From contig OZ024742.1 of NCBI GenBank assembly GCA_964016885.1, positions 237,088,001-237,152,000 of the forward strand: a DNA stretch of 64,000 bases, read 5' to 3'. Source of the stretch: Eledone cirrhosa (taxonomy: Eukaryota). The notes below the pieces were generated by a model. That model ran no database searches and had not been told where the DNA came from. It worked only from the letters and a program-made list of their open reading frames with translations. This document shows positions 2,697-57,220 of this stretch, piece after piece (within the stretch, counting starts at the first letter, position 1; each line of letters begins with the position of its first letter). A program made the translations under genes and the position numbers.

Positions 2697-2876
2697 TTTA
2701 TCCCGGGTTCAATCGGGGGTAACCACAGCAAGTAAGGTACTCAATACAAAGCAGAGTATAAATATTTAATATAGAAATGGCTTCTACAGGACTAGAACTA
2801 TTTCATTCGGGAGAAATCATCAGGAAGTCCGATGATTTCTCCCGAATGAAACAGTTCTAGTCCTGTAGAAGCCATT

Positions 2877-2928: not shown

Positions 2929-3460
2929 AAGGTATATATTGAGTTAGAAACTCAAAATAGTCTTACAATTTGAACACATATATGTAAATATCTTTCCTTG
3001 AGCTATTTTATTGTAAGAGACTATTCTGAGTTTCTAACACACAATATATACCTTTGATATATTCGGCTCCATTAATTTGTTGAGCTAATTTAAATGTCGA
3101 GTAAACTTGGCTGCTATGTTTAGTGGTGTGAGTCTGTGAGACACGCTAGGTTCTGATACCATGTGCGTTATTTTATATTCGTACATTATTCAGTTTTTCT
3201 GATATACCTAGAAGTGAGGAGTTTACTCATTTTTGACCCACTGATGAGCAATAAGCATTGGTAAATCTCTTCACAATTAAATTGCGAAACAGCATCGCCA
3301 AAAGCTGTCTGGGTGATTGGTAGTTACCACAATTCCGGTTTGTATTTATTTTTCTTGATTTATTCTTAAATTGAGTCTGGCAAATCCTATTGTCCATATA
3401 ATTAGTATCTTTTTCACCTTAGCGAACCTGGCCCCTTACGATTTGAACACATATATGTAT
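2925..3460 (+). mobile_element. Non-autonomous retrozyme-like unit (474-nt period) with 5' inverted segment
   Basis: tttgaacacatatatgta occurs at 2968 and 3442. 2925-2970 is the inverted copy of ~3011-3060. Full hammerhead inside, no ORF, (TA)n flank. Confidence 0.65.
3236..3314 (+). ncRNA. Type I hammerhead ribozyme
   Basis: accca-CUGAUGA-gcaat...attgc-GAAA-cagc(atcgccaaaa)gctg-UC-tgggt. All core residues and stems I-III are present; predicted cut after C3309 (GUC). Confidence 0.85.
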
Positions 3461-4245: not shown

Positions 4246-4247
<2 letters not shown>

Positions 4248-4451
4248 CGTTTCTGAATTTGTTTAGCAAGATTCTTTATCTGAAAACGTGTGTTGAAACC
4301 GATATTGTTATACTTTGGGAGGGTCGTGTTGCCAATAAGAAACACACGCACCAGTTGCTTTCACTTCAATTTATTATAATAAATTGAAGTGAAAGCAACT
4401 TGTGCGTGTGTTTCTTATTGGCAACATGACCCTCCCAAAGTATAACAATAT
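4246..4451 (-). mobile_element. PLE family A 3'-end hairpin in (TA)n
   Basis: Near-perfect palindrome 4302-4451 plus tail 4246-4301. The same sequence is the 3' end of the GIY-YIG element at 63199-64000. Confidence 0.8.
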
Positions 4452-7477: not shown

Positions 7478-7480
<3 letters not shown>

Positions 7481-7940
7481 ACCACCAAAGCTTCGATTGT
7501 ACATTTAACTGAACGACATATGTTTCGCCAGGTTACATAAGAACGTACAGAAAGCTCGTATTAAAAACCAGCTCTTCAGAGACTATAAAAAATATTAAAA
7601 TTAACATTAACAGGACATTATCTTCCGGTCGATACTGACTACTAAGATGTACAACGGAAAGTAATATCAATTTAAATGTTTTTATAGACTCTGCTAAGGT
7701 GGTATCCGCGTTCTTAAGGAGCCTGGTGAAACATATGTCGGCCCTTTAAATGTACAATTAACAGCTTTGGTTGACATTTTATATATATGTTCTGTGAGTA
7801 ACATAACCATACAGTGAGTGAACCGTAAACAATGGATTAGCTCCAGATGCTCGGCACCCTTCGCACATACTGATTATCAACTAGTATTGAGCTTAAGCCT
7901 CGCTTTTCCAAACCTATAGTTGTTTCTTCAACTTGTCTTA
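7478..7940 (+). mobile_element. Old PLE 3'-end hairpin with diverged arms
   Basis: 7478-7600 is a diverged inverted copy of 7670-7785. Minus strand has CTGAAGA-gctgg..cctggc-GAAA-catatg-TC (7512-7583). Confidence 0.55.
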
Positions 7941-7951
7941 ACACACATAAC

Positions 7952-8052
<101 letters not shown>

Positions 8053-8077
8053 CATATATATATATATATATATATAT

Positions 8078-8580
8078 CAAGTAAGTATGTTTTGAAACAG
8101 TGAGCAGGTTTGAAATTAGAAAATAGAATAGCTTTCACCGTATTTTTGACTAAAGAAATTTTAGCCTGATAATGGGGTTTAGAACCCTCAGATAAATGGA
8201 AAAAGATGAGTATTGACGTACGTCAATACTCATCTTTTTCCATTTATCTGAGGGTTCTAAACCCCATTATCAGGCTAAAATTTCTTTAGTCAAAAATACG
8301 GTGAAAGCTATTCTATTTTCTAATTTCAAACCTGCTCACTGTTTCAAAACATACTTACTTGCCATTTAAACTCGCTAAGAATGTAGCTTCTAATTTGAAT
8401 GGAAAGAGATGGGTGATGTGTTGGTGTAATGGTAGCACAGTGGTCGCGATAACCAAAGATGTGGGTTCATCTCCCATGTACGTCAATACTCATCTTTTTC
8501 CATTTATCTGAGGGTTCTAAACCCCATTATCAGGCTAAAATTCTTTTAGTCAAAAATACGGTGAAAGCTATTCTCTCTTT
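8078..8580 (+). mobile_element. Non-autonomous 260-nt-period unit with tRNA-like cloverleaf and 142-bp perfect hairpin
   Basis: Arms 8078-8219/8220-8361 with no spacer; 8478-8574 directly repeats 8218-8314; (TA)n on both sides. Confidence 0.75.
8415..8485 (+). pseudogene. tRNA-like cloverleaf (tRNA-Gln-like D arm, non-canonical anticodon loop)
   Basis: Acceptor GATGTGT/GTACGTC; D arm GTGT-AATGGTA-GCAC; anticodon arm TGGT-CGCGATA-ACCA; T arm GTGGG-TTCATCT-CCCAT; T5 run about 10 nt downstream. Lacks U33 and has an atypical T loop. Confidence 0.65.
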
Positions 8581-8595
8581 CTATATATATATATA

Positions 8596-8780
8596 TGCAG
8601 AGGTTATATTTAATTTGTTGGGATTCAACAAGCTTTAAAATGTTTATAACTACTATAAAGCACTCAAATCTGTATTTTATCTGATGAAAGCGCACCATAA
8701 TCTACCTTGGTTGCCCTTGAAATATATATAATAAAATAATTATGGTTTTATAAATATAGTTTCCATTTATTAATATATTG
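8596..8780. mobile_element. PLE family C mini-insertion (tail on minus, hammerhead segment on plus)
   Basis: 8596-8670 is the reverse complement of the family tail seen at 9395-9463 and 9678-9743; the rest carries the hammerhead; TA flanks. Confidence 0.7.
8673..8738 (+). ncRNA. Minimal hammerhead ribozyme
   Basis: tattttat-CUGAUGA-aagcgcacca...tggttgccctt-GAAA-tatata-UA-ataaaata; 8-bp stem I, palindromic stem III. Confidence 0.8.
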
Positions 8781-8804
8781 TATATATATATATATATATA
8801 TATA

Positions 8805-9012
8805 CTTCGTTGTACGACAGAACAAATGAGAGACACAAAATAAAAACCCAGCCACTGAGGAGGTCACAGAATGTGTGACGAAAGAGCTTTGACAATATAT
8901 CAACAACTTTCTGGTTATCGAACTAACCAAACAATCGAAAATTTATAATAAATTGAAGTGAAAACGAACAGGTGCGTGTGTTTTTATTGACAGTATGACC
9001 CTCCCAAAGTAT

Positions 9013-9020
<8 letters not shown>
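8805..9020 (+). mobile_element. PLE family A 3' segment in (TA)n
   Basis: Homologous to the reverse complement of 63255-63500. Ends at gtataacaatat like the other family A tail-less arms. Hammerhead-like CTGAGGA-ggtcaca..tgtgac-GAAA at 8851-8893. Confidence 0.75.
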
Positions 9021-9085
<65 letters not shown>

Positions 9086-9461
9086 ACGATATTAAATAAA
9101 TGGAAACTATATTTATAAAACCATATTTATTTCATTATATATATTTCAGGGATATCATATTAACAATATGCTATGCCTTCCTCAGACAAAATACAATATA
9201 AACAGTTTTATAGATAAATAGATTTGACATACCGTACAACATCGACTTGTATTTGAAAAGTTGAATTGTATTTTGTCTGAGGAAGGCATAGCATATTGTT
9301 AATATGATATCCCTGAAATATATATAATGAAATAAATATGGTTTTATAAATATAGTTTCCATTTATTTAATATCGTAAATATACTCCAAATACTTGTCGA
9401 GTGCTTTTATATCAGTTATAAATATTTACTAGTTGTAACCCAACAATTTAAATATAACTTT

Positions 9462-9463
<2 letters not shown>
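9086..9463 (+). mobile_element. PLE family C hairpin
   Basis: Arms ~9086-9198 and ~9265-9377; tail to 9463; TA flanks. Confidence 0.75.
9269..9334 (+). ncRNA. Minimal hammerhead ribozyme (mirror 9128-9193, minus)
   Basis: tattttgt-CUGAGGA-aggcatagcatatt(gtt)aatatgatatccct-GAAA-tatata-UA-atgaaata. Confidence 0.75.
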
Positions 9464-9510
<47 letters not shown>

Positions 9511-9514
<4 letters not shown>

Positions 9515-9740
9515 TTATTAATAAATGGAAACTATATTTATAAAACCATAATTATTTTATTATATATATTTCAAGGGCAACCAAGGCAATTTTGGTGCGC
9601 TTTCATCAGATAAAATACAAAATATGTTTTATAAATGTTGACATACCCGTAGAAAAACAACCTTAACGGTTGAAGGTTCGCTTTATATCAGTTATAAAAG
9701 GTTTAAGCTTGTTGAATCCCAACAAATTAAATATAACTTC

Positions 9741-9743
<3 letters not shown>
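9511..9743. mobile_element. PLE family C mini-insertion with hammerhead 9553-9617 (minus)
   Basis: Flipped equivalent of 8596-8780; TA flanks. Confidence 0.7.
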
Positions 9744-10761: not shown

Positions 10762-10957
10762 AATGAAGGAGTTGTGGTAAGGAACCAGATGGACCATAAC
10801 GCACCAGAGTATTCAATAGTTAGGGTAGTAGAGTGGGTAATAGGAAAAAGTATGATCCCGACGGCAGAGCTCAAGCCGTTTCGACGGCTATTTCTGAGTC
10901 CAGAAATAGCCGTCGAAACGGCTTGAGCTCTGCCGTCGGGGTCATACTTTTTCCTAT
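10762..10957 (-). mobile_element. PLE family B hairpin in (TA)n
   Basis: Arms 10840-10896/10901-10957, tail 10762-10839. Copies at 21338-21523 and 46459-46638. Contains the hammerhead 3' half GAAA-cggc..gccg-TC. Confidence 0.75.
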
Positions 10958-10985
10958 CTATATATATATATATATATACCTGTAA

Positions 10986-21337: not shown

Positions 21338-21338
<1 letters not shown>

Positions 21339-21520
21339 CGAAGGAAATGTGGTAAGGAACCAGATGGACCATAACGCACCAAAGTACTCAATACTTAGGG
21401 TAGTAGAGTGGGTAATAGGAACAAGTATGACCCCGACGGCAGAGCTCAAGCTGTTTCGACGGCTAAGAGTCCAGAATTAGCCCTCGAAAGGCTTGAGCTC
21501 TGCCGTCGGGGTCATACTTG

Positions 21521-21523
<3 letters not shown>
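21338..21523 (-). mobile_element. PLE family B hairpin in (TA)n
   Basis: Homologous to 10762-10957 with the same architecture. Confidence 0.75.
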
Positions 21524-22699: not shown

Positions 22700-24660
22700 A
22701 GAACTAGAAAGATTGTGGAGACAGGCAGAGAGGTAAAAATTTAGAGAAAAATAACAAGTCCATACATGTTGCCATCTCTTGGAAAACTGTTGATGCTGGC
22801 GTTTTGTTATACTTTTTTGAAAAGTTGATGATGGAGCGCGTCTATCTGAAAGGGGAAAAACCGTTTTGTATATAGAGCTCTACGTGTGCGTGTGCGTACG
22901 TGCGCGCGTGTGTTATTATACGTCTGTACGAAGCTAAGAGGATATGTGTGTGTGTTGTTGCTTGTAAGTACGAAGCTGTGAGCAAAATAATGTGTATATA
23001 AGGGTGTGTGTGTGTGTACAGAGCTGTGAGGGTAAATGTAGAGGTGTGTGTGCGTTTTTTGTTGGTCCGTGTAAGCTGTAAGAGTGTATGTTTCTGACTA
23101 TAACAGAGGCATAGGAACCTAGAGGGGTGAAACTACGCGTGCGTGTGTGACAACGGACGGGGTAAACGTGAGGGTGGTAAGGGGTAGCAAAGTAGGCATG
23201 AGCGTGTATGTGTAAGATTAAAGAAATTGGGGAGGGGAGTTGAGACTATTAGGAGAACTGGACTCTAGGCAGAATATCAGATTCTGTTCAGTCATGGTGC
23301 GCCAGGCCTGTGATCCGTGATGTAAAAAGACACCAAGGACTGATACATGTAGGGAAGAATGACCTGGGGAACGGAAATGACGAGCGATGGAAATATCCAT
23401 ACCGAGTCGTATGTCCATCAAATGTTCAGCAAAACGGTGCGCCAAACGGCGTTCTGTTTGTCCGATTTATAATGATCTACAAAGGGAACACTGGGTGGCA
23501 TAGACTATGTGGATCGAGGTGCAGGTGAAGGAGTGGCGGATACTGAATGAACCATTAGTGTCTGTGAGAGTGATGAGATTAGAAATGAAGGGAAGGGTGT
23601 TACAGCGGGGACGAGAACAGAGATGAGAACCAGGAGGAGTCTTAGGAGAGGAAGGGAAAGAACTACGTATCTGGAGGTCGCAGAGATTACGGGAGCGCTT
23701 AAACGCGGTTATGGATGGGTTTGGAAAAAAGCGAGAAGTGACGGGGTCAGAAGTGAAAGTGCGGAAGCAAAGGAGGACATGTAGCCAGAGAGGTAGGGTA
23801 ATAGGGTGGTAGGTGAGAAGGAAAGGAAGGCGGGTGTTGGAAGGGTGGTTGTAGGGTGAGAGGGCTGCGATACGGTCAATTTCACGGGTGCTGGTGAGGG
23901 TAGGCTGAATCAGGGTGGGGGGTACCCACGCTGGGTGAAGTGGGAAGCTATGTAAAGGGACTGGGTCTCGAAATCGTGGTCCTAGCTACAGTGCCAACAG
24001 AGACGAAGCAATTGGGGGTAGGGTATGGAGAGTTTGGTATGGGTGGGATGGGAGGAGGTGAAGTCCAGGTAGAAGTGGGAATGTGTGTGCTTATAAAAGA
24101 TGGACGTAGAGAGTGTATGTTGAGTGTGATCAATAGACAGAGAGATATCAAGAAATTAGACTGAAGAGTTGGAGACAGGGGTGGTGAAGGTGAGGGTAAG
24201 ATGGAAAGACTGGACAAAAGAAAGGAGTCGAGCTGTTCACAGGAGAGAGAGGTGGTGCCGGTGCAATTATCGATGTAACGACTGTATAGCTCAGGGTCGG
24301 ACTAGTGTACTGGGTGAAGGTTATGGCGTCAACGTAACCAACAAAGAAGTTGGTGTAGTTAGGGCCCATTCTTGTACCTATGACTACCCCAGAGACCTGT
24401 TGATAAAACTATACGAAAAAGGAGAAACGATTAAGAGAGAGAATGAGCTCATCAAAGCGGAGAAGGGTAGGGGTGAAGCGTAAAAAAATGTCGGAGAGCG
24501 TGGAGGCCGTCTTGGTGGGAGATGACGGTGTAGAGAGAGTTAATGTCCATGATAAAGAGGAGACGAAGAAGGGGTTAAATAGTCGAAGAGCATGATTGGT
24601 TTCGTGAATGTGGGAGAGGATGTCGATAACTAGTGGTGCGAGGTAGGTGTCACTATTGTT
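22700..24660 (-). mobile_element. Neptune-like PLE, degenerate RT + Zn linker + GIY-YIG
   Basis: MGPNYTNFFVGYV, RYID, FLDI, CSRPRCNTLPFI linker, AHRFAEHL.DIRLG..IARHF...EQNLIF; many frameshifts. Confidence 0.8.

Positions 24661-32369: not shown

Positions 32370-32372
<3 letters not shown>
32101..32372 (-). mobile_element. PLE 3'-end hairpin at the left edge of the giant (TA)n array
   Basis: 32163-32235 is inverted at 32300-32372; tail 32101-32162. Confidence 0.7.
32240..32275 (-). ncRNA. Minimal hammerhead ribozyme, U3:A8 variant
   Basis: ctt-UUGAAAA-gcag(aagaa)ctgc-GAAA-ccgg-UA-aag. Confidence 0.75.
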
Positions 32373-35091
<2,719 letters not shown>

Positions 35092-37658
35092 TAGGAGGTG
35101 AGTTTTATTGTAGTACAATAAAGCAATGCAGATATCGGATAAGAAGCACTCTACAGTTTGTGGGACTGGAGTATGCATAATATAAGATCAAAAGATGGTT
35201 AAAGGAGTTCAATATATTTTATTATGCGCATTTCAAAAACAAACATCATCAAACAATAATATTTGTGTTTTCATCAGATAAAACAGGAGAACATGATATG
35301 AAGGCTAAAAAAAACACTTGTTGATAGTGCAGTTTTAAATCAACATATGAAAAGTGGTTTTAGATTGATGTGTGATATTGGGAAAAATATTTTATTTAGA
35401 GAGGGGGGGAGAGAAAAGGATGAAAAGGGAAGGAGATGAGAGGGAGAGATGGGTGATAGAGAGAAAGAGATAGTTTTTATAACAGAGAGGAGATATATTT
35501 TATATAGAGGGGTTGAAAACCGTTGGAAGATACTGTATAAATTAAAAATTTTGAAAATTAACGAAGGGAGGATATGTGCGAGGAAAAAATATATTATATT
35601 TAGGGAGGGGTGGGGGTGGAAAGGATGAAAAAAATGGGAGGAGATGAGAGTGAAGGTGGAAAGGGAGAGATGGGTGATAGAGAGAAAGAGATAGTTTTTA
35701 TAACTGAGAAAAAGATATAATGTTTTAATATAGAGAGGTTGGGAACCGTTGGAAGATAATGTATAAATTAAAGGAATTTGAAAATTAACGAAGGGAAATT
35801 ATGTATGGAGATAGAGAGAAAAAAATAACGAAGGGAGATTATGTATGGAGATAGAGAGAAAAAAAAATAATAATTGTGGGTGAATATTCAAAAGGAGAAA
35901 TGTAGGAATTTTAAAATTAGCAAAGAGAAAAAGTTTATGTATAGGATTTGAGAAAAATAATGTGAAGTTAAAGTTTTTATATTGAATTCATATGTATTAA
36001 TAATGAGTTCGTTGATGGGGAGAAAAAAATAATAATAAATTAAGGATGAAATTGAGATTAAAAAGATTTATGATAGAGAGAAAAAATAATAATGATTGCG
36101 GATGAATACTCAAAATGTCAAAAACAAATGTTATTGTTTTACGAGGAGATATAATGAGGGTGATGAGTAAACGGGTATTATAGAGTGTATAATGCCCTTT
36201 AAAGTAAGGTAGATGGGTATATTTTAAAGAATATATGAGTATATATTAAAAAAAATATATAATAATAAATTAAGGATGAAATTGAGATTAAAAAGATTTA
36301 TGATAGAGGGAAAAAAAATAATAATGATTGCGGATGAATATTCAAAATGTCAAAAACAAATGTTATTGTTTTACGAGAAGATAGGATGAGGTAAATGAGT
36401 AAACGAGTACTATAGAGTGTATAATGCCCTTTAAAGTAAGGTAGATGGGTATATTTTAAAGAGGTGTATGTATATGTGCCTTTGAGAAAAGATTCTAAAT
36501 TGATAAAGAATTGAATATTAACTGTATACTTTGTGAAAAGTTCTATGGAATTTATGCAGGCAGATGGAAAACAAATCCGAGCGTCTATTTATTATGGATT
36601 CTAGGTTAGAGATAATGGTAAATTTTTCATTTAGGCAGAGATTACAGATTTTAGATAGAGAACTGTTCAAGTACGAGGATGCAGAAGAAATCTTTTTCCA
36701 AAAGATGTTATATTTAATGTTTTTGTCTTTTAAGGACCATATGAGTTCTGAGAGAGCAGTGTTAGTTCTTTTAAGTTTGTATTTGAAAGATGAATGATGA
36801 TTATAGAGACGAGCTTTAAAAGAGGTGGAAGTGGAGCCAAAATAGGTGAAGGAGTTGGTGCTAGTTATAATTTTACATTCATAAATTAAGTTTTTATCGA
36901 GGCAATGGTTGTTGAGAGGACATTTATTTTTAATGCGGCAGTTGCAATTAGAGAGATTATTAATGAGTGATCTAGTGTTATCTATAGAAGGAATTGGATT
37001 GGAGAAGTTGTTTGCGATAGGAATAATAGGAATAATAGTTTCTTGATTTAGAGTTGGATTATGAACATTTAGCGAAGTTGTGTTTGACGTTGCATTTGGG
37101 TTTACAGAAGTTAGCCTAGGGTTTACAATGACGTCAGGAGTACTATTATTGTTATTATGAGATTCAATATTGGAAGGAAGAGATTTAGTATTTAATATTT
37201 TGTTGTTGTGTTTAGAAATGATGTTGGAAATATTGGAGGATGTAGAATACGAAAATTTAATGGTGTGTTTGTTAAATATTTTACTATAGATATGTGAGGG
37301 AGGGAAGCATTTATTTAAGGCACTAAAAAATAATTTAGGAATATTGTTATTAATAGAGATGGAGAAAGGAGCATTATACCAGATTATGTTTTTGTATCTA
37401 GGTCTTTTATTAAAATTATTGGAATGGTTATGATTAAATATTCTACTGTAAGTTTTCCTAGAATTTGTTTCTTTATTATATTTGATTTTATCTGGATAGC
37501 CGGCTTTAGAAAGTGCGTTATTATAGTAATTGGCGTTAGCATCAAAGATGTTTTTATTAGAAGATATGTTAGATATTCTATTTCCAATATTATTAACTAT
37601 AGCATTCTTGATATTGGTAGGATGGTTAGATTTAAAGTTAACATAATTAAGATTCTCA

Positions 37659-38648
37659 TTGTTTAATTCTAGGAAAACTTACAGTAGAATATTTAATCAT
37701 AACCATTCCAATAATTTTAATAAAAGACCTAGATACAAAAACATAATCTGGTATAATGCTCCTTTCTCCATCTCTATTAATAACAATATTCCTAAATTAT
37801 TTTTTAGTGCCTTAAATAAATGCTTCCCTCCCTCACATATCTATAGTAAAATATTTAACAAACACACCATTAAATTTTCGTATTCTACATCCTCCAATAT
37901 TTCCAACATCATTTCTAAACACAACAACAAAATATTAAATACTAAATCTCTTCCTTCCAATATTGAATCTCATAATAACAATAATAGTACTCCTGACGTC
38001 ATTGTAAACCCTAGGCTAACTTCTGTAAACCCAAATGCAACGTCAAACAGGCTAACTTCTGTAAACCCAAATGCAACGTCAAACACAACTTCGCTAAATG
38101 TTCATAATCCAACTCTAAATCAAGAAACTATTATTCCTATTATTCCTATCGCAAACAACTTCTCCAATCCAATTCCTTCTATAGATAACACTAGATCACT
38201 CATTAATAATCTCTCTAATTGCAACTGCCGCATTAAAAATAAATGTCCTCTCAACAACCATTGCCTCGATAAAAACTTAATTTATGAATGTAAAATTATA
38301 ACTAGCACCAACTCCTTCACCTATTTTGGCTCCACTTCCACCTCTTTTAAAGCTCGTCTCTATAATCATCATTCATCTTTCAAATACAAACTTAAAAGAA
38401 CTAACACTGCTCTCTCAGAACTCATATGGTCCTTAAAAGACAAAAACATTAAATATAACATCTTTTGGAAAAAGATTTCTTCTGCATCCTCGTACTTGAA
38501 CAGTTCTCTATCTAAAATCTGTAATCTCTGCCTAAATGAAAAATTTACCATTATCTCTAACCTAGAATCCATAATAAATAGACGCTCGGATTTGTTTTCC
38601 ATCTGCCTGCATAAATTCCATAGAACTTTTCACAAAGTATACAGTTAA
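37659..38648 (+). CDS. PLE ORF C-terminal part: thumb end, CxCx5C linker, GIY-YIG endonuclease (5'-truncated)
   Basis: IWYNAPFS..KIFNKHTIKFSYST; CNCRIKNKCPL..C; LIY..YFGST..FKARL..H; CNLCLNE; CLH. Confidence 0.85.
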   Translation: MFNSRKTYSRIFNHNHSNNFNKRPRYKNIIWYNAPFSISINNNIPKLFFSALNKCFPPSHIYSKIFNKHTIKFSYSTSSNISNIISKHNNKILNTKSLPSNIESHNNNNSTPDVIVNPRLTSVNPNATSNRLTSVNPNATSNTTSLNVHNPTLNQETIIPIIPIANNFSNPIPSIDNTRSLINNLSNCNCRIKNKCPLNNHCLDKNLIYECKIITSTNSFTYFGSTSTSFKARLYNHHSSFKYKLKRTNTALSELIWSLKDKNIKYNIFWKKISSASSYLNSSLSKICNLCLNEKFTIISNLESIINRRSDLFSICLHKFHRTFHKVYS

Positions 38649-39881
38649 TATTCAATTCTTTATCAATTTAGAATCTTTTCTCAAAGGCACATATACATAC
38701 ACCTCTTTAAAATATACCCATCTACCTTACTTTAAAGGGCATTATACACTCTATAGTACTCGTTTACTCATTTACCTCATCCTATCTTCTCGTAAAACAA
38801 TAACATTTGTTTTTGACATTTTGAATATTCATCCGCAATCATTATTATTTTTTTTCCCTCTATCATAAATCTTTTTAATCTCAATTTCATCCTTAATTTA
38901 TTATTATATATTTTTTTTAATATATACTCATATATTCTTTAAAATATACCCATCTACCTTACTTTAAAGGGCATTATACACTCTATAATACCCGTTTACT
39001 CATCACCCTCATTATATCTCCTCGTAAAACAATAACATTTGTTTTTGACATTTTGAGTATTCATCCGCAATCATTATTATTTTTTCTCTCTATCATAAAT
39101 CTTTTTAATCTCAATTTCATCCTTAATTTATTATTATTTTTTTCTCCCCATCAACGAACTCATTATTAATACATATGAATTCAATATAAAAACTTTAACT
39201 TCACATTATTTTTCTCAAATCCTATACATAAACTTTTTCTCTTTGCTAATTTTAAAATTCCTACATTTCTCCTTTTGAATATTCACCCACAATTATTATT
39301 TTTTTTTCTCTCTATCTCCATACATAATCTCCCTTCGTTATTTTTTTCTCTCTATCTCCATACATAATTTCCCTTCGTTAATTTTCAAATTCCTTTAATT
39401 TATACATTATCTTCCAACGGTTCCCAACCTCTCTATATTAAAACATTATATCTTTTTCTCAGTTATAAAAACTATCTCTTTCTCTCTATCACCCATCTCT
39501 CCCTTTCCACCTTCACTCTCATCTCCTCCCCTTTTTTTCATCCTTTCCACCCCCACCCCTCCCTAAATATAATATATTTTTTCCTCGCACATATCCTCCC
39601 TTCGTTAATTTTCAAAATTTTTAATTTATACAGTATCTTCCAACGGTTTTCAACCCCTCTATATAAAATATATCTCCTCTCTGTTATAAAAACTATCTCT
39701 TTCTCTCTATCACCCATCTCTCCCTCTCATCTCCTTCCCTTTTCATCCTTTTCTCTCCCCCCCTCTCTAAATAAAATATTTTTCCCAATATCACACATCA
39801 ATCTAAAACCACTTTTCATATGTTGATTTAAAACTGCACTATCAACAAGTGTTTTTTTTAGCCTTCATATCATGTTCTCCT

Positions 39882-39950
39882 GTTTTATCTGATGAAAACA
39901 CAAATATTATTGTTTGATGATGTTTGTTTTTGAAATGCGCATAATAAAAT
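39882..39950 (+). ncRNA. Minimal hammerhead ribozyme (mirror 35216-35284, minus)
   Basis: gttttat-CUGAUGA-aaacacaaatatta..tgatgtttgttttt-GAAA-tgcgca-UA-ataaaat. Confidence 0.85.
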
Positions 39951-39994
39951 ATATTGAACTCCTTTAACCATCTTTTGATCTTATATTATATATG

Positions 39995-40028: not shown

Positions 40029-40337
<309 letters not shown>

Positions 40338-40985
40338 TCAGGTTATCAATAATGTAGTGATAATATATCATTACGTTAGAGATGAACAGCGTACGTGCAG
40401 GTTTGCTCAACGAGTATAAATTATATTCCGGAGAAATGTAGAAAGGATGAATATAAAATGAAAGTGCTTTTGTTAAAAAAGGAATTTATTAGGTATTGAC
40501 ATATGTTTCTGTAACAGACCGAATACCTATGTATCGCTGCTTGCGTAATCATATAATGTTAGCAAGTATTCGATAGCAAATGTATAATCAGTTGTCACTT
40601 CTTCAGAGATTTTGGATAAACTGGATAAAATCAGAAAAATTGAAGTATTTATATTAGTAAAAGAGGAAGGAACAGAGGGGATAGAATATGACAGATGGTA
40701 AAATAATTTACTGCTAAACAAGTATATAATGGGTTTTTAATGAGAATACCATGAGTAAATCTAAATAAGAATTTTGGGGGTGCCGATTTTAATCTCTACT
40801 TGACCAACTGGACAGTGGACAGGGCTGGTCATTTGGTGCAGTAGTATTAATCATAAAGTGTCAATTGGGGAAGGGGGAGATTTCGATTGCTACTAAATAA
40901 CATCAATGCTAGTGGTCAGCTGGTATTTGCTCTAGGGAATTGAATCAAAAAATCAGAAATCTCATTTTATCTATAGCAGTTTGTA

Positions 40986-43053
40986 TTAAAAGGTAAATAA
41001 TAGAAGAGTTGATAGAATTAAGACTAATAAAGAATGTTCATATCTATTTTGACAATCAAACGGGGATAGAGACAGGCGTTCAATCCTGGTAGTATTATAA
41101 TATGAAAATGTAGATTTTAAGCGATGGTTACAGTATAACGATCGCTCTATTCTATTATTTAATAAAATGTTTTTGGATTTCATAATACAAAATAATTCTA
41201 CATTACATAATCTACAAAATTCCTGTCCATTGAAATATGGGGGGGCAGCCGCTATTATATCCCATTTTAGGTGAAATTGTTGGTTATTTTCACGCAGCTG
41301 CCAAGCCTTGTCTGCGAGTGTTGTTACATAACGCTGGTTTTCATGTTTTATCGAATAACGATGTCTATAAAGGCGTGATTTAAAGGAGGTGGCTGTAGAT
41401 CCCACATAGTACCACTTCTGTCTATCCGATTCGATAGTACATTTGTATACGATGTTGCGTTCAAGACACTGGTTGTTCAACGGACACATTCCTGGTTGGA
41501 CACAGTTGCAATTACAATTTTGCGTTGTTGTATTGCCATGGATGGGTTGATGAGGTTGCTTATGTAGAACAGGATGTTGTTTGTTGTTTTGTGATGTTAT
41601 AGCTAATGTTTTACGTGTATTGTTATGTGTTGGAAGGCGTTTATACAACCGTTTTGCGTTAAGCATTTTTATATGTTGTTCAATATTAGGGGCGGTTGAA
41701 TATGAAAGTCGGATGGTGTTAGGGTTTAAGATTTTATTATATTTATGTGATGTTGGAAAGTGTTTTCTAACTAATCGAAAGAATTTTGAGGGTAGATTGG
41801 TTTTAATAGATTTGTTATAGACCGGGTTGTACCAGATATACTCCTTACATCGCCTTCTGTTTGGTGGTGTGCGACTATTATTGTGTCTATTGCGGTAGTG
41901 TATGTATGGTGGTGATTCTGTGCTATTTCTACTCCTATGTGATTTATTTTGGGTGTTTTGGTGATCATTGACTATATACTCTATATTATCTAGGTGACCG
42001 GCTTTCCTAAGTGCATCATCATAATACTCGGCATGTTCTTTGAAGGTTTGTTGGTTGGACGATAGGTGGGAGATTCTAAGAGAAACATTTCTAGGGATGG
42101 ATTTAATTATAGAGAGTGGATGGTTAGAACTCGTATTTACATATTTAAGGTTCTCATTTAGTTTATGGAACGGTTTAATCGTATCTGTATTGAGATTGAA
42201 AGTAACATCAAGGAAATTGACCTCTTTGAGGTTATATTCAAATGTAATATTTAATCCTAGTTCTTTAAAAAGTTTTCTGATATTTTTACGCATCCTTTCT
42301 AAATTCTGGTTATTCATATTCTTAACTAATAGGAGCGCATCGTCACGGTAAATTCCACCGTGGAGATCCTTGAATTTTCCTTGTAATCTGTGGGTGATAT
42401 AAATTCCCACAAGATCTGTTACCTCCGCCGAATCATTAGAACCCATAGTGATATCAAAATTAGAAGGTCTATCTTTGCGAACCCAGTAGCTATCATCGAA
42501 TTTAACTATAGTTTTTCTCGCTTCCATAATAATTTTAATTTCAGCATCCGTAAGGTCGGAATTATCCTTAGCGAACGAAAGAGCTTCATGTAGAGTATCA
42601 GGTGAAATTGAGGAATAATATTCATCAATATCAAACTGAATAAATTTTGATTTTTTCTTATCAGTAATGTTGTTAAACCATCTTATTGCTTCATGAGTGT
42701 TACCCCATAGTTTAATCTCTACTTTAACCTTAACTTGGGGGATAATTCTGTCTAGTATATATTTGCTAATTTTACCTATATCAGATTTAGAGGGGCATAT
42801 AAGTCTAATATTAGGGTTAGTATCGAAGTTTACCTTGTGGTCCTTCAGGTTGAAGGATGGTATAGCTGGTGTTAAGGGTTGCGTTCTATCGTCAATACAA
42901 AGTTTTTTAACAATATCACATGCCGAGTTGTTGATGTTTTTAAGTGTGGCTTCATTAGTTTTCCTGTATTTTTTATGCAATTCCTTACGGATGAAGTTAT
43001 TGTAAGTGTCCACATCCATGGTATATACGTTTGATGTTTTGTCTGCTCTAACA
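40986..43053 (-). CDS. PLE reverse transcriptase + GIY-YIG endonuclease (5'-truncated, open)
   Basis: ADKT motif, KDHK..RLI, QFDIDEYYSSI, TMGS..SAE, IYRDD, FLDV, SNHP, CNCVQPGMCPL, IVY..YVGST..R, CRLC..E. The first ~17 aa of the track ORF come from the hairpin junction. Confidence 0.92.
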
Positions 43054-43055
43054 AT

Positions 43056-44876
43056 AACTCGGCATGTGATATTGTTAAAAAACTTTGTATTGACGATAGA
43101 ACGCAACCCTTAACACCAGCTATACCATCCTTCAACCTGAAGGACCACAAGGTAAACTTCGATACTAACCCTAATATTAGACTTATATGCCCCTCTAAAT
43201 CTGATATAGGTAAAATTAGCAAATATATACTAGACAGAATTATCCCCCAAGTTAAGGTTAAAGTAGAGATTAAACTATGGGGTAACACTCATGAAGCAAT
43301 AAGATGGTTTAACAACATTACTGATAAGAAAAAATCAAAATTTATTCAGTTTGATATTGATGAATATTATTCTCTTTCGTTCGCTAAGGATAATTCCGAC
43401 CTTACGGATGCTGAAATTAAAATTATTATGGAAGCGAGAAAAACTATAGTTAAATTCGATGATAGCTACTGGGTTCGCAAAGATAGACCTTCTAATTTTG
43501 ATATCACTATGGGTTCTAATGATTCGGCGGAGGTAACAGATCTTGTGGGAATTTATATCACCCACAGATTACAAGGAAAATTCAAGGATCTCCACGGTGG
43601 AATTTACCGTGACGATGCGCTCCTATTAGTTAAGAATATGAATAACCAGAATTTAGAAAGGATGCGTAAAAATATCAGAAAACTTTTTAAAGAACTAGGA
43701 TTAAATATTACATTTGAATATAACCTCAAAGAGGTCAATTTCCTTGATGTTACTTTCAATCTCAATACAGATACGATTAAACCGTTCCATAAACTAAATG
43801 AGAACCTTAAATATGTAAATACGAGTTCTAACCATCCACTCTCTATAATTAAATCCATCCCTAGAAATGTTTCTCTTAGAATCTCCCACCTATCGTCCAA
43901 CCAACAAACCTTCAAAGAACATGCCGAGTATTATGATGATGCACTTAGGAAAGCCGGTCACCTAGATAATATAGAGTATATAGTCAATGATCACCAAAAC
44001 ACCCAAAATAAATCACATAGGAGTAGAAATAGCACAGAATCACCACCATACATACACTACCGCAATAGACACAATAATAGTCGCACACCACCAAACAGAA
44101 GGCGATGTAAGGAGTATATCTGGTACAACCCGGTCTATAACAAATCTATTAAAACCAATCTACCCTCAAAATTCTTTCGATTAGTTAGAAAACACTTTCC
44201 AACATCACATAAATATAATAAAATCTTAAACCCTAACACCATCCGACTTTCATATTCAACCGCCCCTAATATTGAACAACATATAAAAATGCTTAACGCA
44301 AAACGGTTGTATAAACGCCTTCCAACACATAACAATACACGTAAAACATTAGCTATAACATCACAAAACAACAAACAACATCCTGTTCTACATAAGCAAC
44401 CTCATCAACCCATCCATGGCAATACAACAACGCAAAATTGTAATTGCAACTGTGTCCAACCAGGAATGTGTCCGTTGAACAACCAGTGTCTTGAACGCAA
44501 CATCGTATACAAATGTACTATCGAATCGGATAGACAGAAGTGGTACTATGTGGGATCTACAGCCACCTCCTTTAAATCACGCCTTTATAGACATCGTTAT
44601 TCGATAAAACATGAAAACCAGCGTTATGTAACAACACTCGCAGACAAGGCTTGGCAGCTGCGTGAAAATAACCAACAATTTCACCTAAAATGGGATATAA
44701 TAGCGGCTGCCCCCCCATATTTCAATGGACAGGAATTTTGTAGATTATGTAATGTAGAATTATTTTGTATTATGAAATCCAAAAACATTTTATTAAATAA
44801 TAGAATAGAGCGATCGTTATACTGTAACCATCGCTTAAAATCTACATTTTCATATTATAAATACTACCAGGATTGA
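43056..44876 (+). CDS. Inverted copy of the same PLE RT-EN ORF
   Basis: Same protein with a 30-nt in-frame deletion at ~43372 and a different C-terminus caused by a 1-nt indel (ends YYKYYQD*). Confidence 0.9.
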   Translation, partial: NSACDIVKKLCIDDRTQPLTPAIPSFNLKDHKVNFDTNPNIRLICPSKSDIGKISKYILDRIIPQVKVKVEIKLWGNTHEAIRWFNNITDKKKSKFIQFDIDEYYSLSFAKDNSDLTDAEIKIIMEARKTIVKFDDSYWVRKDRPSNFDITMGSNDSAEVTDLVGIYITHRLQGKFKDLHGGIYRDDALLLVKNMNNQNLERMRKNIRKLFKELGLNITFEYNLKEVNFLDVTFNLNTDTIKPFHKLNENLKYVNTSSNHPLSIIKSIPRNVSLRISHLSSNQQTFKEHAEYYDDALRKAGHLDNIEYIVNDHQNTQNKSHRSRNSTESPPYIHYRNRHNNSRTPPNRRRCKEYIWYNPVYNKSIKTNLPSKFFRLVRKHFPTSHKYNKILNPNTIRLSYSTAPNIEQHIKMLNAKRLYKRLPTHNNTRKTLAITSQNNKQHPVLHKQPHQPIHGNTTTQNCNCNCVQPGMCPLNNQCLERNIVYKCTIESDRQKWYYVGSTATSFKSRLYRHRYSIKHENQRYVTTLADKAWQLRENNQQFHLKWDIIAAAPPYFNGQEFCRLCNVELFCIMKSKNILLNNRIERSLYCNHRLKSTFSYYKYYQD

Positions 44877-45349
44877 ACGCCTGTCTCTATCCCCGTTTGA
44901 TTGTCAAAATAGATATGAACATTCTTTATTAGTCTTAATTCTATCAACTCTTCTATTATTTACCTTTTAATACAAACTGCTATAGATAAAATGAGATTTC
45001 TGATTTTTTGATTCAATTCCCTAGAGCAAATACCAGCTGACCACTAGCATTGATGTTATTTAGTAGCAATCGAAATCTCCCCCTTCCCCAATTGACACTT
45101 TATGATTAATACTACTGCACCAAATGAGCAGCCCTGTCCACTGTCCAGTTGGTCAAGTAGAGATTAAAATCGACACCCCCAAAATTCTTATTTAGATTTA
45201 CTCATGGTATTCTCATTAAAAACCCATTATATACTTGTTTAGCAGTAAATTATTTTACCATCTGTCATATTCTATCCCCTCTGTTCCTTCCTCTTTTACT
45301 AATATAAATACTTCAATTTTTCTGATTTTATCCAGTTTATCCAAAATCT

Positions 45350-45458
45350 CTGAAGAAGTGACAACTGATTATACATTTGCTATCGAATACTTGCTAACAT
45401 TATATGATTACGCAAGCAGCGATACATAGGTATTCGGTCTGTTACAGAAACATATGTC
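45350..45458 (+). ncRNA. Hammerhead-like motif with very long stem II (mirror 40498-40606)
   Basis: CUGAAGA-agtgaca..cgaatac..gtattcg..tgttaca-GAAA-catatg-UC; stem I not evident. Confidence 0.55.
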
Positions 45459-45512
45459 AATACCTAATAAATTCCTTTTTTAACAAAAGCACTTTCATTT
45501 TATATTCATCCT

Positions 45513-46709
<1,197 letters not shown>

Positions 46710-46732
46710 CATGTATATATATATATACACAT

Positions 46733-46773
<41 letters not shown>

Positions 46774-46776
<3 letters not shown>

Positions 46777-47336
46777 TAGCGAGGTTTTTTATATGAAATC
46801 GTGTGTCGAAACAGATATTGTTATATTTGGGGAGGGTCATATTTGCGTAATATTGCCAGAATTAATAACAGAACACACTCACTGTTTGGTTGGTTTTCGC
46901 TTCTCGCTGTCTTTTATATCTGCGATCTAACTTACTCGGTCCTCAATGTTGCCATTGACTGACCGGCGGTCAAAAATAATACAGATACAATATAGACACA
47001 AACACATATATATAGTTTACATAATTTACATAAATCTTTCGTTGCACATCTGCAACATCGTCAGTGGTGTTATATTCATTGTTCCTCCTGTTGTGTTGTA
47101 TGTCTACGCCATTTTTTATTCAGTCTGTCTATATATTTATTTATTTATTTGCTGTGTTTGTGTCTATATTGTATCTGTATTATTTTTGACCGCCGGTCAG
47201 TCAATGGCAACATTGAGGACCGAGTAAGTTAAATCGCAGATATAAAAGACAGCGAGAAGCGAAAACCAACCAAACAGTGAGTGTGTTCTGTTATTAATTC
47301 TGGCAATATTACGCAAATATGACCCTCCCCAAATAT

Positions 47337-47343
<7 letters not shown>
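46774..47343 (-). mobile_element. Family A-related PLE 3'-end hairpin
   Basis: Arms 46814-47005/47153-47343; tail 46774-46813; terminus similar to family A (..ataacaatat). Confidence 0.7.
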
Positions 47344-48280: not shown

Positions 48281-48432
48281 TTCGAAAATGAAAACCGTTT
48301 TTCTCTACGATGCACCGTTTCAGACTCTTTGGGGGACATACACAAATACACATAAATTCTCATTTATAGTATAAATATATTAAGGTTGATAAATTATCTT
48401 TCATAAAGTTATTTCATCTTTTCTCTCCGCAG

Positions 48433-48938
48433 GTATTACCTTTGGCAATGAACACATCGTCTTCCTTATTATCGGCTGTATGGTGCTCTTCTTCATGGTA
48501 TGTCTTCCAATAGACTTCTACAACTACCATAAGAAGCGAAAAGACAAGAAAGACCGACAAGGGGCCAGTATGGTTTACTCACGAACTGGTCCCAGACCTT
48601 TCCAGGTAATTGTCAACCAAGAATCAAACACCGAAGAGACACATCAAGCGAGACACACAAAATCGAGACGACCCTTTTATAAATTTATGGGTCTCGTGGC
48701 ACTACTTAAGAAGAAGCCAGTTTCGAACGATGATCAAATTGATAGTATTGTGGATGACGGGGTTACACCGTCCACATCAACGAAATCGATGAGTATGTCA
48801 ACGATGTACTGTAACAGTGTGGGATTATCTGCTGATTCAATGAGTCCAGCGGAACATATTGAACTTCCAGAGTTACCATATGACAATGTAAGGAAACCAA
48901 AAGAAATCTATAATTTTGTGGACCAAGAAAATTCTTGA
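48433..48938 (+). CDS. Putative terminal coding exon of a single-pass membrane protein (TM + cytoplasmic tail)
   Basis: Acceptor catcttttctctccgcag at 48432, phase 1. Open frame ITFGNEH-IVFLIIGCMVLFFMVCLPI-DFYNYHKKRKDKK...LPYDNV..EIYNFVDQENS*; non-repetitive. Confidence 0.7.
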
Positions 48939-49806: not shown

Positions 49807-51558
49807 AATTAATTTGAGAGTTCGGTAAGTTGATTTACTAGAATGCAGAGCACTGACTTACCGAACTACTAACAAACCATCTCTCCTACAAATATCTATC
49901 TGCTTTCTTGTTGCATATGTTACATGAAACGGCAGTGACATAATGAAGCTTTAACAGTTTGCATAGTTCTAATAATGAATTAATATAATTGGATTTATAT
50001 GTTTTATATGAAAAAAAAATAGAATAACAACACTTCCGGTTTTGTACCAACACTTTATGCCAAATTGCCCCAAAATGTAAAACAACAAAAACAAAAAAAT
50101 AATAAATAAATGAAAACTATGAGAATGGTATAATTGATAATTTCCGACCGAAATTATGGTTATTTTACATTTCGAACAATTTTACAATTTATATGACTCT
50201 CCATTTTTAATCTCAGAAAAAAAAAAGAGATAGTAAAAAAGAAAAAAAATATTTGCAGATAACTATTTTCAAGTGGAGTATCCGGGAAACAGAAAAAATC
50301 AATGCATGTCAATTATACTAATTATGAAAACAATTTTCAAGCTGGGTTTAAAAGGTAAGGCAAGAGTTAATGTTATGAGGTGACGTTCAACATTGTTATC
50401 TAGTCAAAATAATTTTTATTTTAATTACTGACATCCGTAGAGAATTTTTTCTATAGAAAAGAGTTTGTATTACTGAAAATTATTTTAATTGAGTTAAAAC
50501 GAACAGCAAAGTAATTTTTTTCAACTTCTGCTTGTATACTAACGCTTAAATGATTTTAAATTTTTCTGAAGACAAGCCATGAGCCGGATGTATTGTTAAT
50601 GTTAGTAAAACAATTGTGTAAAATTCCGTGAAATAAAAAAAATTATTGTTTGTAAAATCATTGTTTTTCTTAAAATTGACACATGTAAAAATATGTTGTA
50701 AAATTGTTATGCAAAATAAATTATAGTTTGTTACAAAAATATGCACAAAATGATTGATTTCTTAACCATATATATCATTTCACGAATCAATTCTACAATT
50801 TCTTTTTCTTTCCGTATGAAATTTGAAATTAAAACGGGCGTAAATAAATTGTATCGTTCATATATTTGACATTAATATTATATGTGAAGTATCACTCTGA
50901 TTTGTCTGGTGACTGGCTCTGCCCATCAGTGGGATCTGAACCCAGGACGCTCTAAAAATTCTGGCAACCCACTATAGTAGGAATATATGCTAAAGGGATC
51001 GAATTTCCCAGCCGGTTTTTGTGTGGGGGTTAACTGGAGTAAAAAAGAATTTCATCTCCAAACAAATAACAAATGCAATGTCAGAAATTTACAAAGAATT
51101 GCTAAAATAGTGGTTTGTAAGTTAGGCATAAGACTAGAGAGAATACAATCAGTTACATTGACCTCAACACTTCACTCCTATTTACTATAGAAACTCTGGA
51201 AAGAGTCTGAAGTGCTAGCGTTGCGTGCTGGCTATAGGTCAGTGATACCGAATGTGTGATACACGTTCTACAGAGGGCTAATTTGAATAATTTTCTGGGC
51301 AGTTTGTGTATGTGTGAGTGCATCTTCCTAAATGTTATGCTCTCTTTCTAATATCAAACATTGAGAGTGGAATGGGGGTGGGTTAATTTTTAGGTATCAT
51401 GTGGAGCATGGAAAAAAACTTATTAATGTATCCTATTGTAGATTGCTTAACCTTTTTGATACTAAACTACCTGAAACTGACCCTAGTTTTACAGCAGAAA
51501 GATCCTCATTTTTAACATGTATTTATTTTTTTATGCTCCAAACATCTACTAATATATA

Positions 51559-51743
51559 ATTGTTTCTACTTTAGGCACAAGGCCAGCAATTAACCAGTTC
51601 ATTACTGGTACTTTATTTTATCGACCCCGTAAGGATGAAAGGCAAAGTCAACCTCGGCGGGATTTGAACTCGGATCGTAAAGGGACGTAACTATGCTGGA
51701 AAGCATGGCGTCCGACCCTCTACTGATACTGTCAATCCACGGC
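51559..51743 (-). mobile_element. SINE family 1 with target-site duplication
   Basis: Flanked by the direct repeat catctactaatatata at 51543 and 51744. Confidence 0.85.
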
Positions 51744-52224
51744 CATCTACTAATATATAATGTTCTAGTGTTTTTGTACGTCACGGAAAGGGAGGTAACT
51801 CATCTATAGTTCAGTAAAACATTATACAAACATTATACAAAACTAGCAGAAAAACCCCCCTACGGGTGGTTTTCTGCTAGCATGTGTAGTGTGTATATTG
51901 ATATTATACACAAATATATGATACATCAAATAAAATCATAATTGACAATATACACAGAAATTGAACAAAGCCTATGTCACACTGTCTTCTATAATCAGTA
52001 ATCCATGATATATTTAAAAAAAGACGACATTATATATAAACTGCATTAGGAGAAAATTAGCGACGGAAATATATGCGATTATAAGTGTTATAATATAAAC
52101 GGCCGCTAACCGGAAGTGTTGACATTTGATAATTTTAAAGAAGTGAATTTTAAAGATTAAGCTATAAAATATATTTAATCAACAGCCACGAAATTTAGCA
52201 CATAAATTATGTAATATTCATAGA

Positions 52225-52380
52225 GGGTTGAACGCCATGCTTTCTAGCATAGTTACGTCCCTTTATGGTTTGGGTTCAAATCCCGTCGAGGTTAACTTTG
52301 CCTTACGGGGTCGATAAAATAAAGTACCAGTAATGTACTGAGTAATTGCTGGCCTTGTGCCAAAAGTAGAAACAATTATT
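52225..52380 (+). mobile_element. SINE family 1
   Basis: Matches 1818-2010. Confidence 0.8.
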
Positions 52381-56339: not shown

Positions 56340-56450
56340 AATCCCGCCGAGGTTGACTTTGCCTTTCATCCTTACGGGGTCGATAAAATAAAGTACCAGT
56401 AATGCACTGGGTAATTGCTGGCCTTGTGCCTAAAGTAGAAACAATTATTA
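56340..56450 (+). mobile_element. SINE family 1, 5'-truncated
   Basis: Matches the 3' half of 1818-2010. Confidence 0.8.
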
Positions 56451-56962: not shown

Positions 56963-57034
56963 CACTCATATATATATACATACACACACATTTATACATA
57001 TACATATGTACGTATGGGTTATGTCGAACATTAA

Positions 57035-57220
57035 TAATTGTTTCTACGTTAGGCACAAGGCCAGAAATAACCCAGTGTATTACTGGTACTTTATTTTATC
57101 GACCCCGTAAGGATGAAAGGCAAAGTTAACCTCGGCGGGATTTGAACTCAGAATGGCAAGGGCCGTAACTCTATGCGTCAAAGCAAGGCGTCCGACCCTC
57201 TACCAATACTGCCAGTTCGA
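57035..57220 (-). mobile_element. SINE family 1
   Basis: Reverse complement of 1818-2010. Confidence 0.85.

Follow-up and report, generated by a model that had tools for sequence, protein, structure and literature searches.

In this study, we analysed a 64-kb stretch of DNA (the window) and found in it a copy of a multi-copy, retrozyme-like 260-nt repeat that was inserted into (TA)n, in which descriptor and Rfam searches found no hammerhead, and in which a tRNA cloverleaf is clamped by a leader-trailer stem. We describe the family, its insertion geometry, two 3′ ends that join TA sequence, an inversion hot spot and the stem. The reading that we put first, at somewhat less than even confidence, is that the repeat would be copied in trans by the machinery of Hydra-clade Penelope-like elements (PLEs) from a long, likely uncut RNA of several units. 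Within it the tRNA may act as a shielded Pol III cassette, a role that we propose tentatively.

In the self-comparison of the sequence, an inverted arm of 142 nt follows (AT)n and precedes 364 nt of plus strand, after which comes (TA)n (Table 1). The direct repeat of 8218-8322 and 8478-8583 has 96% identity at a spacing of 260, that is, 364/260 or 1.4 units. The tandem of about 1.4 units, the perfect 142-bp inverted arm and the embedding in (TA)n claimed in the initial annotation all held, and the extent given there, 8078..8580, is real with its right end corrected to 8583. Its report of neither poly-A nor target site duplication (TSD) stood for the former, none being present in the flanks, but a TSD is unreadable inside (TA)n. 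An assembly artefact in the palindrome or the tandem is exceedingly improbable: the arm is perfect and the window holds many palindromes, but opposite-strand joints and tandem-junction pieces are seen in runs and organisms that are independent of one another, the window copy consists of two unlike units, and the tails are specific to each family.

Table 1. Features of the insertion and of its 260-nt unit (positions in the window).
Feature	Position	Strand	Basis or remark
Left (AT)n target	8054..8077	.	(CA)n at 7941-8051 upstream
Inverted 5′-truncated arm	8078..8219	-	3′ end towards left TA run; 142/142 identical to 8220-8361
39-nt tail on inverted arm	8078-8116	-	Absent from right end
Inversion centre on 4-nt palindrome	8218..8221	.	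Equivalent to 8478-8481, 3′ strand of acceptor stem
Complete 260-nt unit, circularly permuted view	8220..8479	+	Direct repeat
Small hairpin after stem	8250..8265, repeated 8510-8525	+	No Rfam family; motif seen in loose ends, all four runs
Second hairpin, 7 bp	8273..8291, repeated 8533-8551	+	Both stem variants listed stay paired on + strand
Tail, short 3′ end (8323 = 8583) to long 3′ end (8361)	8323..8361	+	X4 and X10 ends
Variable spacer / tandem junction	8362..8395	+	Read depth lowest here
Purine-rich leader arm, extended stem	8396..8414	+	Folding
tRNA cloverleaf without CCA	8415..8485	+	Rfam; anticodon loop non-decoding
A box; B box	~8422-8433; 8464-8474	+	B box with two changes in window copy
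Pyrimidine-rich trailer arm behind 3-nt bulge	8488..8506	+	Contains T5 run 8495-8499
Partial second unit, stops at short 3′ end	8480..8583	+	Unlike unit 1 at 8283-8284 equivalents and near end
Right (TA)n target	8584..8596	.	Sequence

The 71-nt cloverleaf recognised at the outset scored 37.3 bits with the full Rfam tRNA model RF00005 (gathering score 29) and was the sole gathering-level match across the window. ARAGORN called no tRNA for the window copy at default settings and, with its pseudogene option, returned Ser(cga)*, so this copy scores as a pseudogene; a tRNA was called once positions 8446, 8447, 8469 and 8470 were set to the family majority. The majority letters (T, G, G and A, with 81%, 95%, 98% and 94% of the depth in run X1) restore U33, G57 and A58, lost in the window copy, and with them a canonical cloverleaf and elbow are present. 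The loop CGCGATA, singled out early as odd, and the damaged T-loop are thus mostly damage to the window copy, with minority letters in the family; the oddity holds insofar as the majority loop, which has U33, is non-decoding as well. Its position 37 is U and its anticodon is that of Ser, on a body with a short variable arm, and one subfamily has C33; a decoding tRNA is expected to have a purine at 37, and a Ser tRNA a long variable arm. Since the anticodon loop is non-canonical (U37, or C33 in the subfamily), this is not a decoding tRNA. The supposed Gln character of the D arm was supported in part: the pattern of D and T arms matched 41 tRNAs in a microbial and phage, not eukaryotic, comparison set, 27 of them Gln, but the other 14 were Gly (10), Trp (3) and Lys (1). 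The T5 run reported just downstream is present, 10 nt past the tRNA.

The flanks of the cloverleaf, said in the initial annotation to extend the acceptor by about 17 bp, are predicted to form a helix of 19 bp (16 Watson-Crick and 3 GU) with a mean pair probability of 0.96, set off from the cloverleaf by a 3-nt bulge on the 3′ side; as the two outermost pairs differ among copies, about 17 bp is its conserved core. The fold of 8395-8505 is far more stable than expected (z -4.4, 0 of 200 shuffles as good), the cloverleaf without flanks is no stabler than shuffles (z -0.42), and the 260-nt unit outdoes its shuffles on the plus strand (z -3.0) but not on the minus strand (z -0.2). Covariation did not reach significance: among the 40 variant rows listed of 80, none fell in the D, anticodon and T stems, and 8 of 14 helix variants kept pairing (null mean 5.8, P 0.08), with similar variant densities at paired and unpaired positions (14/100 and 24/160). 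A triple helix of the 3′ end with the stem was dropped, 8405 A>G being common in the family.

Nine of 12 public sequencing runs, under six organism labels and none recorded as RNA, contain part of the unit. Reads were compared over reference 8236-8515 in runs X1, X4, X6 and X10 (three organism labels), and runs X5 and X7-X9 (shares 0.05-0.18) were left out of all counts. Copies were found in 4651 contigs of X1, 3193 RAD reads of X10, 7 contigs of X4 and 6 of X6; as only 976 of the X1 contigs are at least 99% identical to the window copy (646 are below 90%), the family is large and diverged. Bins of X10 summed by hand gave about 1.2 per 10,000 letters read, and the genome may hold, as a rough estimate, hundreds to thousands of units, RAD depth being biased with steps at AATT sites, contig depth not equalling copy number and X1 possibly deriving from the same source as the window. 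The unit pattern had no match in metagenome and viral contigs, and phage blastn returned short matches only (E 0.008-0.3).

The copies also show features of the layout first proposed: ends that join TA, tandem junctions and inversions. The tandem junction was crossed by seven of the eight longest X1 pieces listed and by one X6 piece. The long 3′ end, 8361, meets TA in record 9 of X4 and in the left arm of the window copy; at the short 3′ end (about 8323), which is also the right end of the window copy, 133 X10 reads depart at 8309 into TA-rich sequence. Depth in X1 is 24.7k at 8383 against 37.5k at 8410, so the leader arm and spacer are present in other copies, and no start site was listed at 8415; the tRNA is therefore internal rather than 5′, as claimed. 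These observations bear on an ordinary tRNA SINE locally rearranged in an unstable TA region. Its A box, B box and downstream body are indeed SINE-like, and the majority of copies are seemingly 5′-truncated; but the sequence upstream of the tRNA belongs to other copies and pieces cross the junction, a terminator-like T run lies 10 nt behind the tRNA, poly-A is absent, and the tail geometry is common to PLEs. That other copies retain the leader arm and the tandem junctions, join TA at their 3′ ends and are inverted at nearly the same spot shows that this is not a 5′-tRNA SINE; such an origin is already largely refuted and we rate it highly improbable.

According to the part of the source consulted, PLEs form partial tandems with an inverted 5′-truncated copy and a tail of 30-40 bp (PMC8557442), and the unit shows the features of a PLE derivative: a partial tandem with an inverted 5′-truncated copy, a tail at one end and a (TA)n target. 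Thirteen TA-flanked inverted insertions, the unit included, were picked by hand from the self-comparison of the window. Ten have a one-sided tail (39 nt in the unit, 46-108 nt in the others), one has none and two aligned too poorly; the nine tailed among the other 12 include several copies of one family and both long PLEs. The latter, at 35091-39981 and 40333-45515, are Hydra-clade elements that form large inverted pairs and have one-sided tails of 94 and 108 nt; hammerhead cores lie close to their ends. The ORF of the longer encodes DKT, CxCx5C, CxxC and CxH, of which the shorter piece, lacking an RT, has the last three, motifs which together with (TA)n targeting are given as Hydra-clade marks in the same excerpt (PMC8557442). 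Pfam searches of five window ORFs gave nothing useful, and a protein search returned 278 relatives, nearly all unnamed, with a best identity of 45%. Between the unit and the two long PLEs no significant sequence similarity was found (314/500 and 447/500 shuffles equalled the score). Of seven short TA-flanked elements one gave a weak match: the unit 3′ end aligned with the hammerhead-family tail of 2695-2882 at a score that 25 of 3000 shuffles equalled, the best result among 9 comparisons. Over 8 nt the tRNA 3′ end matches the sequence at which the hammerhead of the PLE at 40333-45515 cuts, but this was rejected as not significant. The unit very probably depends on PLE machinery, and the window's two PLEs share no detectable sequence with it.

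Other repeats and frames were seen in the window. A 2.7-kb (TA)n array (32370-35090) lies beside a PLE end, and further TA-flanked inverted families occur at 10763-10958, 21338-21523 and 46460-46638 and at 4246-4450 and 46773-47340, with tails of 46-81 nt. A 172-aa frame at 23467-23985 (-) has no Pfam match and contains Cys pairs that we take to be typical of the linker of another PLE clade. At 48393-48938 (+) a 181-aa open frame with a hydrophobic stretch, also without a Pfam match, is possibly a host exon. A dispersed repeat of about 190 bp (82-95% identity) lies at 1819-2010, 51556-51744, 52221-52379, 56340-56448 and 57034-57214.

The absence of a hammerhead, first noted by eye, was confirmed within the reach of the searches: on both strands of the unit the descriptor found no match with at most one core mismatch and one weak minus-strand match with two, and Rfam found no ribozyme family in 8220-8585 up to E 10. 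Of 10 control regions the descriptor recovered 5, and two of those that it missed have cores seen otherwise, so an unusual ribozyme could escape it. The controls were ordinary retrozyme-like PLE derivatives: short TA-flanked inverted elements at 8596-9743, 7478-7780 and 2695-2882 whose type I hammerhead cores are minimal (8681+, 9277+, 9185-, 9609-, 7579-, 2823-), and a lone core at 3241+. By-eye fits of pistol, HDV-like, hairpin and twister-sister motifs failed. The hairpin at 8250-8265 resembles the twister P4/L4 loop, but it had no Rfam match and no pseudoknot partners on inspection. GAAA at 8303-8306, which could form a stem with 8334-8337, makes half of a hammerhead core; it was discarded, as a matching first half is missing and CTGA at 8248 varies in the family. 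Separately, a T-arm-like hairpin at 2697-2722 (+), antisense in the tail of the 2695 hammerhead family, loosely resembles the hairpin at 8250-8265.

The tRNA could have been a passenger, a pre-tRNA-like gene that on one occasion entered a retrozyme-like repeat and took the place of the hammerhead there, with only the 3′ tail mattering for copying and the stem merely rendering the tRNA harmless. Read depth peaks downstream of the tRNA, so many copies are without most of it; the weak 3′ alignment with the 2695-2882 family, the insertions at 4246, 10763 and 46773, in whose kept pieces no hammerhead matched, and the loss of U33, G57 and A58 in the window copy point the same way. In a diverged subfamily (loose-end consensus of 49 X1 contigs), however, two non-Watson-Crick pairs in the D and anticodon stems are replaced by Watson-Crick ones, and the leader arm and D arm are retained in relatives from two further organisms; we hold a passenger to be rather improbable.

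The point at which copying would tend to end lies within the tRNA. Depth climbs over 8470-8481 (1118 to 1535 in X10, 152k to 316k in X1). In both X1 and X10 opposite-strand joints fall at 8475-8479, in X4 a loose end that is palindromic begins at 8475, and the window copy is inverted at the equivalent of 8479|8480. We infer that reverse transcriptase stops on entering the T-arm and that the product folds back on 4-nt palindromes; modified A58 is, we assume, a possible added cause of the stop. The inverted arm has the letters of unit 1, whereas unit 2 has another common allele at 8283 (8283C, 42% of X1 depth); this speaks for fold-back and for a template of several units. Such a template fits better than a single rolled monomer circle, on the evidence of one copy, in which gene conversion could mimic the pattern. 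The template of the window copy spans two T5 and two T4 runs, and many copies apparently have a longer T run (47 X1 contigs, 194 X10 reads), so that Pol III is an unlikely template maker. The initial idea of a Pol III-related element moved by PLEs therefore keeps its second part, given the PLE geometry and the Hydra-clade PLEs in the window, and is weakened in the first.

The further suggestion that processing by RNase P and RNase Z replaces the hammerhead was also weakened. In the excerpts at hand, human tRNase Z is suppressed by leaders longer than 8 nt and by more than two leader-trailer pairs (PMC9141469), and ELAC2 clashes with the 5′ leader (PMC11996679). RNase P on an extended acceptor needs a bulge or mismatch at -1: the extended stem of MALAT1 aids it only with a base bulged 5′ of the cut, a continuous stem is cut less, and the leader-trailer stem promotes RNase P and delays RNase Z (PMC8457004, in part). 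These rules are human and yeast ones and may not hold in the host. Of the mascRNA-type features, the unit has the extended acceptor stem, but the unpaired base 5′ of the RNase P site is predicted to be absent, U-1 (U8414) being 93-99% paired (unpaired 0.01-0.07 in four folds). The enzyme rules and the predicted pairing of U-1 indicate that the stem more likely protects the tRNA than presents it, and we consider it likely to shield the tRNA from trimming enzymes. X10 depth is flat at the RNase P site (741, 757 and 763 at 8414-8416) and at the RNase Z site (1566 at 8483, 1571 at 8487). Hammerhead-bearing neighbours were copied intact across their own cut sites, and the lack of a depth step at 8415/8486 is therefore compatible with processing.

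These results bear on whether the tRNA occupies the hammerhead slot, with RNase P cutting each unit once, at 8414|8415, and a paired trailer that blocks RNase Z; the product would be 260-nt monomers with stem-held ends, maybe ligated to circles without a ribozyme. The topology is that of the neighbours with a type I hammerhead, in which a module also sits between two arms that pair and upstream of two 3′ ends; no hammerhead was found in the unit, most copies have a canonical elbow but a non-canonical anticodon loop, and MALAT1, as far as the excerpt goes, offers a precedent (PMC8457004). Owing to the junction bulge, U-1 is also predicted to pair with either of two partners (0.53/0.46), and roughly one in three X10 reads (236/741) has A at 8414. 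Set against this are the predicted pairing of U-1, a bulge on the 3′ side where MALAT1 requires the 5′ side, the flat depth at 8415, the absence of tRNA-skipping joints among the 15 listed of 44 and the different alleles of the two units of the window copy. On balance, we regard such a cut as unlikely.

The preferred reading, copying of a long uncut RNA by PLE machinery, would proceed in four steps. First, a tandem master array would be transcribed across several units, probably by Pol II read-through, since T4-T5 runs would stop Pol III. Second, the leader-trailer stem would make the ends of the tRNA inaccessible to RNase Z and mostly so to RNase P, leaving the RNA whole. Third, the PLE reverse transcriptase would use nicked (TA)n as its primer, begin at the short 3′ end and stall on entering the T-arm, and the cDNA would fold back on a 4-nt palindrome to give an inverted arm and a one-sided tail. 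In the schistosome SM-alpha retrozyme a Pol III promoter lies beside the hammerhead. Fourth, the tRNA might be retained chiefly because it serves as a Pol III cassette (A box, B box and T run) that contributes to arrays staying open or being transcribed, comparable to the proposal for TRIMp3 elements. This is the weakest step, and the T runs that argue against Pol III as template maker weaken it too.

In the literature covered, mostly at title and abstract level, we found no PLE parasite that bears a tRNA and is free of ribozymes; a family annotated in Repbase or Dfam without publication is possible. Among known systems, tRNA-derived SINEs also have A and B boxes and are short, non-coding and dispersed, but the unit has an internal tRNA with a T run right behind it, tandem and inverted copies and no poly-A. 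In the sections consulted, MALAT1 mascRNA and NEAT1 menRNA likewise place a tRNA-like module in a long RNA, with a purine-rich leader that pairs with the trailer (PMC8457004). Their stem has 7 bp against 19 in the unit, where the bulge is on the 3′ side and -1 is predicted to be paired, and they are single loci with a U-rich triple-helix element, whereas the unit is a mobile repeat in which no such element was seen (PMC8457004).

TRIMp3 elements (Cassandra, Helenus and Ajax) resemble the unit, in the passages available, in being non-autonomous and in carrying an internal small-RNA-gene cassette in the repeated part, with conserved promoter boxes and no decoding function (PMC10886601). They have LTRs, PBS, PPT, 4-5-bp TSDs and dependence on LTR elements, and Cassandra keeps terminators in both LTRs with the transcript ending in the second, whereas the unit shows PLE-type marks and its cloverleaf is still foldable (PMC10886601, in part). 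Membership in TRIMp3, which is defined by LTR, PBS, PPT and TSD, was rejected for the unit, whose layout is inverted and tandem with TA flanks. Small-RNA-gene cassettes are thus already known in SINEs, with LINE partners, and in TRIMp3, with LTR partners.

The closest likenesses are to PLEs and their derivatives. Hydra-clade PLEs, as portrayed in the consulted part, share the (TA)n target, the partial tandem, the inverted 5′-truncated head and the one-sided tail (39 nt in the unit) (PMC8557442); the unit differs in being non-coding and in that no hammerhead was found in it, and has no detectable sequence in common with the two in the window. It bears on the origin of the inverted head and tail, as its inversion point clusters at a defined RNA structure. 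Non-LTR retrozymes, in the portions consulted, have a similarly short, low-GC, non-coding tandem unit (260 nt here), a proposed dependence on PLEs and a module between pairing arms (PMC7229834; bioRxiv 10.64898/2026.07.22.740005). They possess a type I hammerhead, whereas the unit, which is known from DNA alone, has a tRNA cloverleaf and no hammerhead was found in it; the term tRNA does not occur in the main text of the preprint (bioRxiv 10.64898/2026.07.22.740005). If each unit is indeed cut once at its tRNA, a protein enzyme would here stand in for the hammerhead, and the unit offers a short substrate for asking what the PLE reverse transcriptase requires of its RNA.
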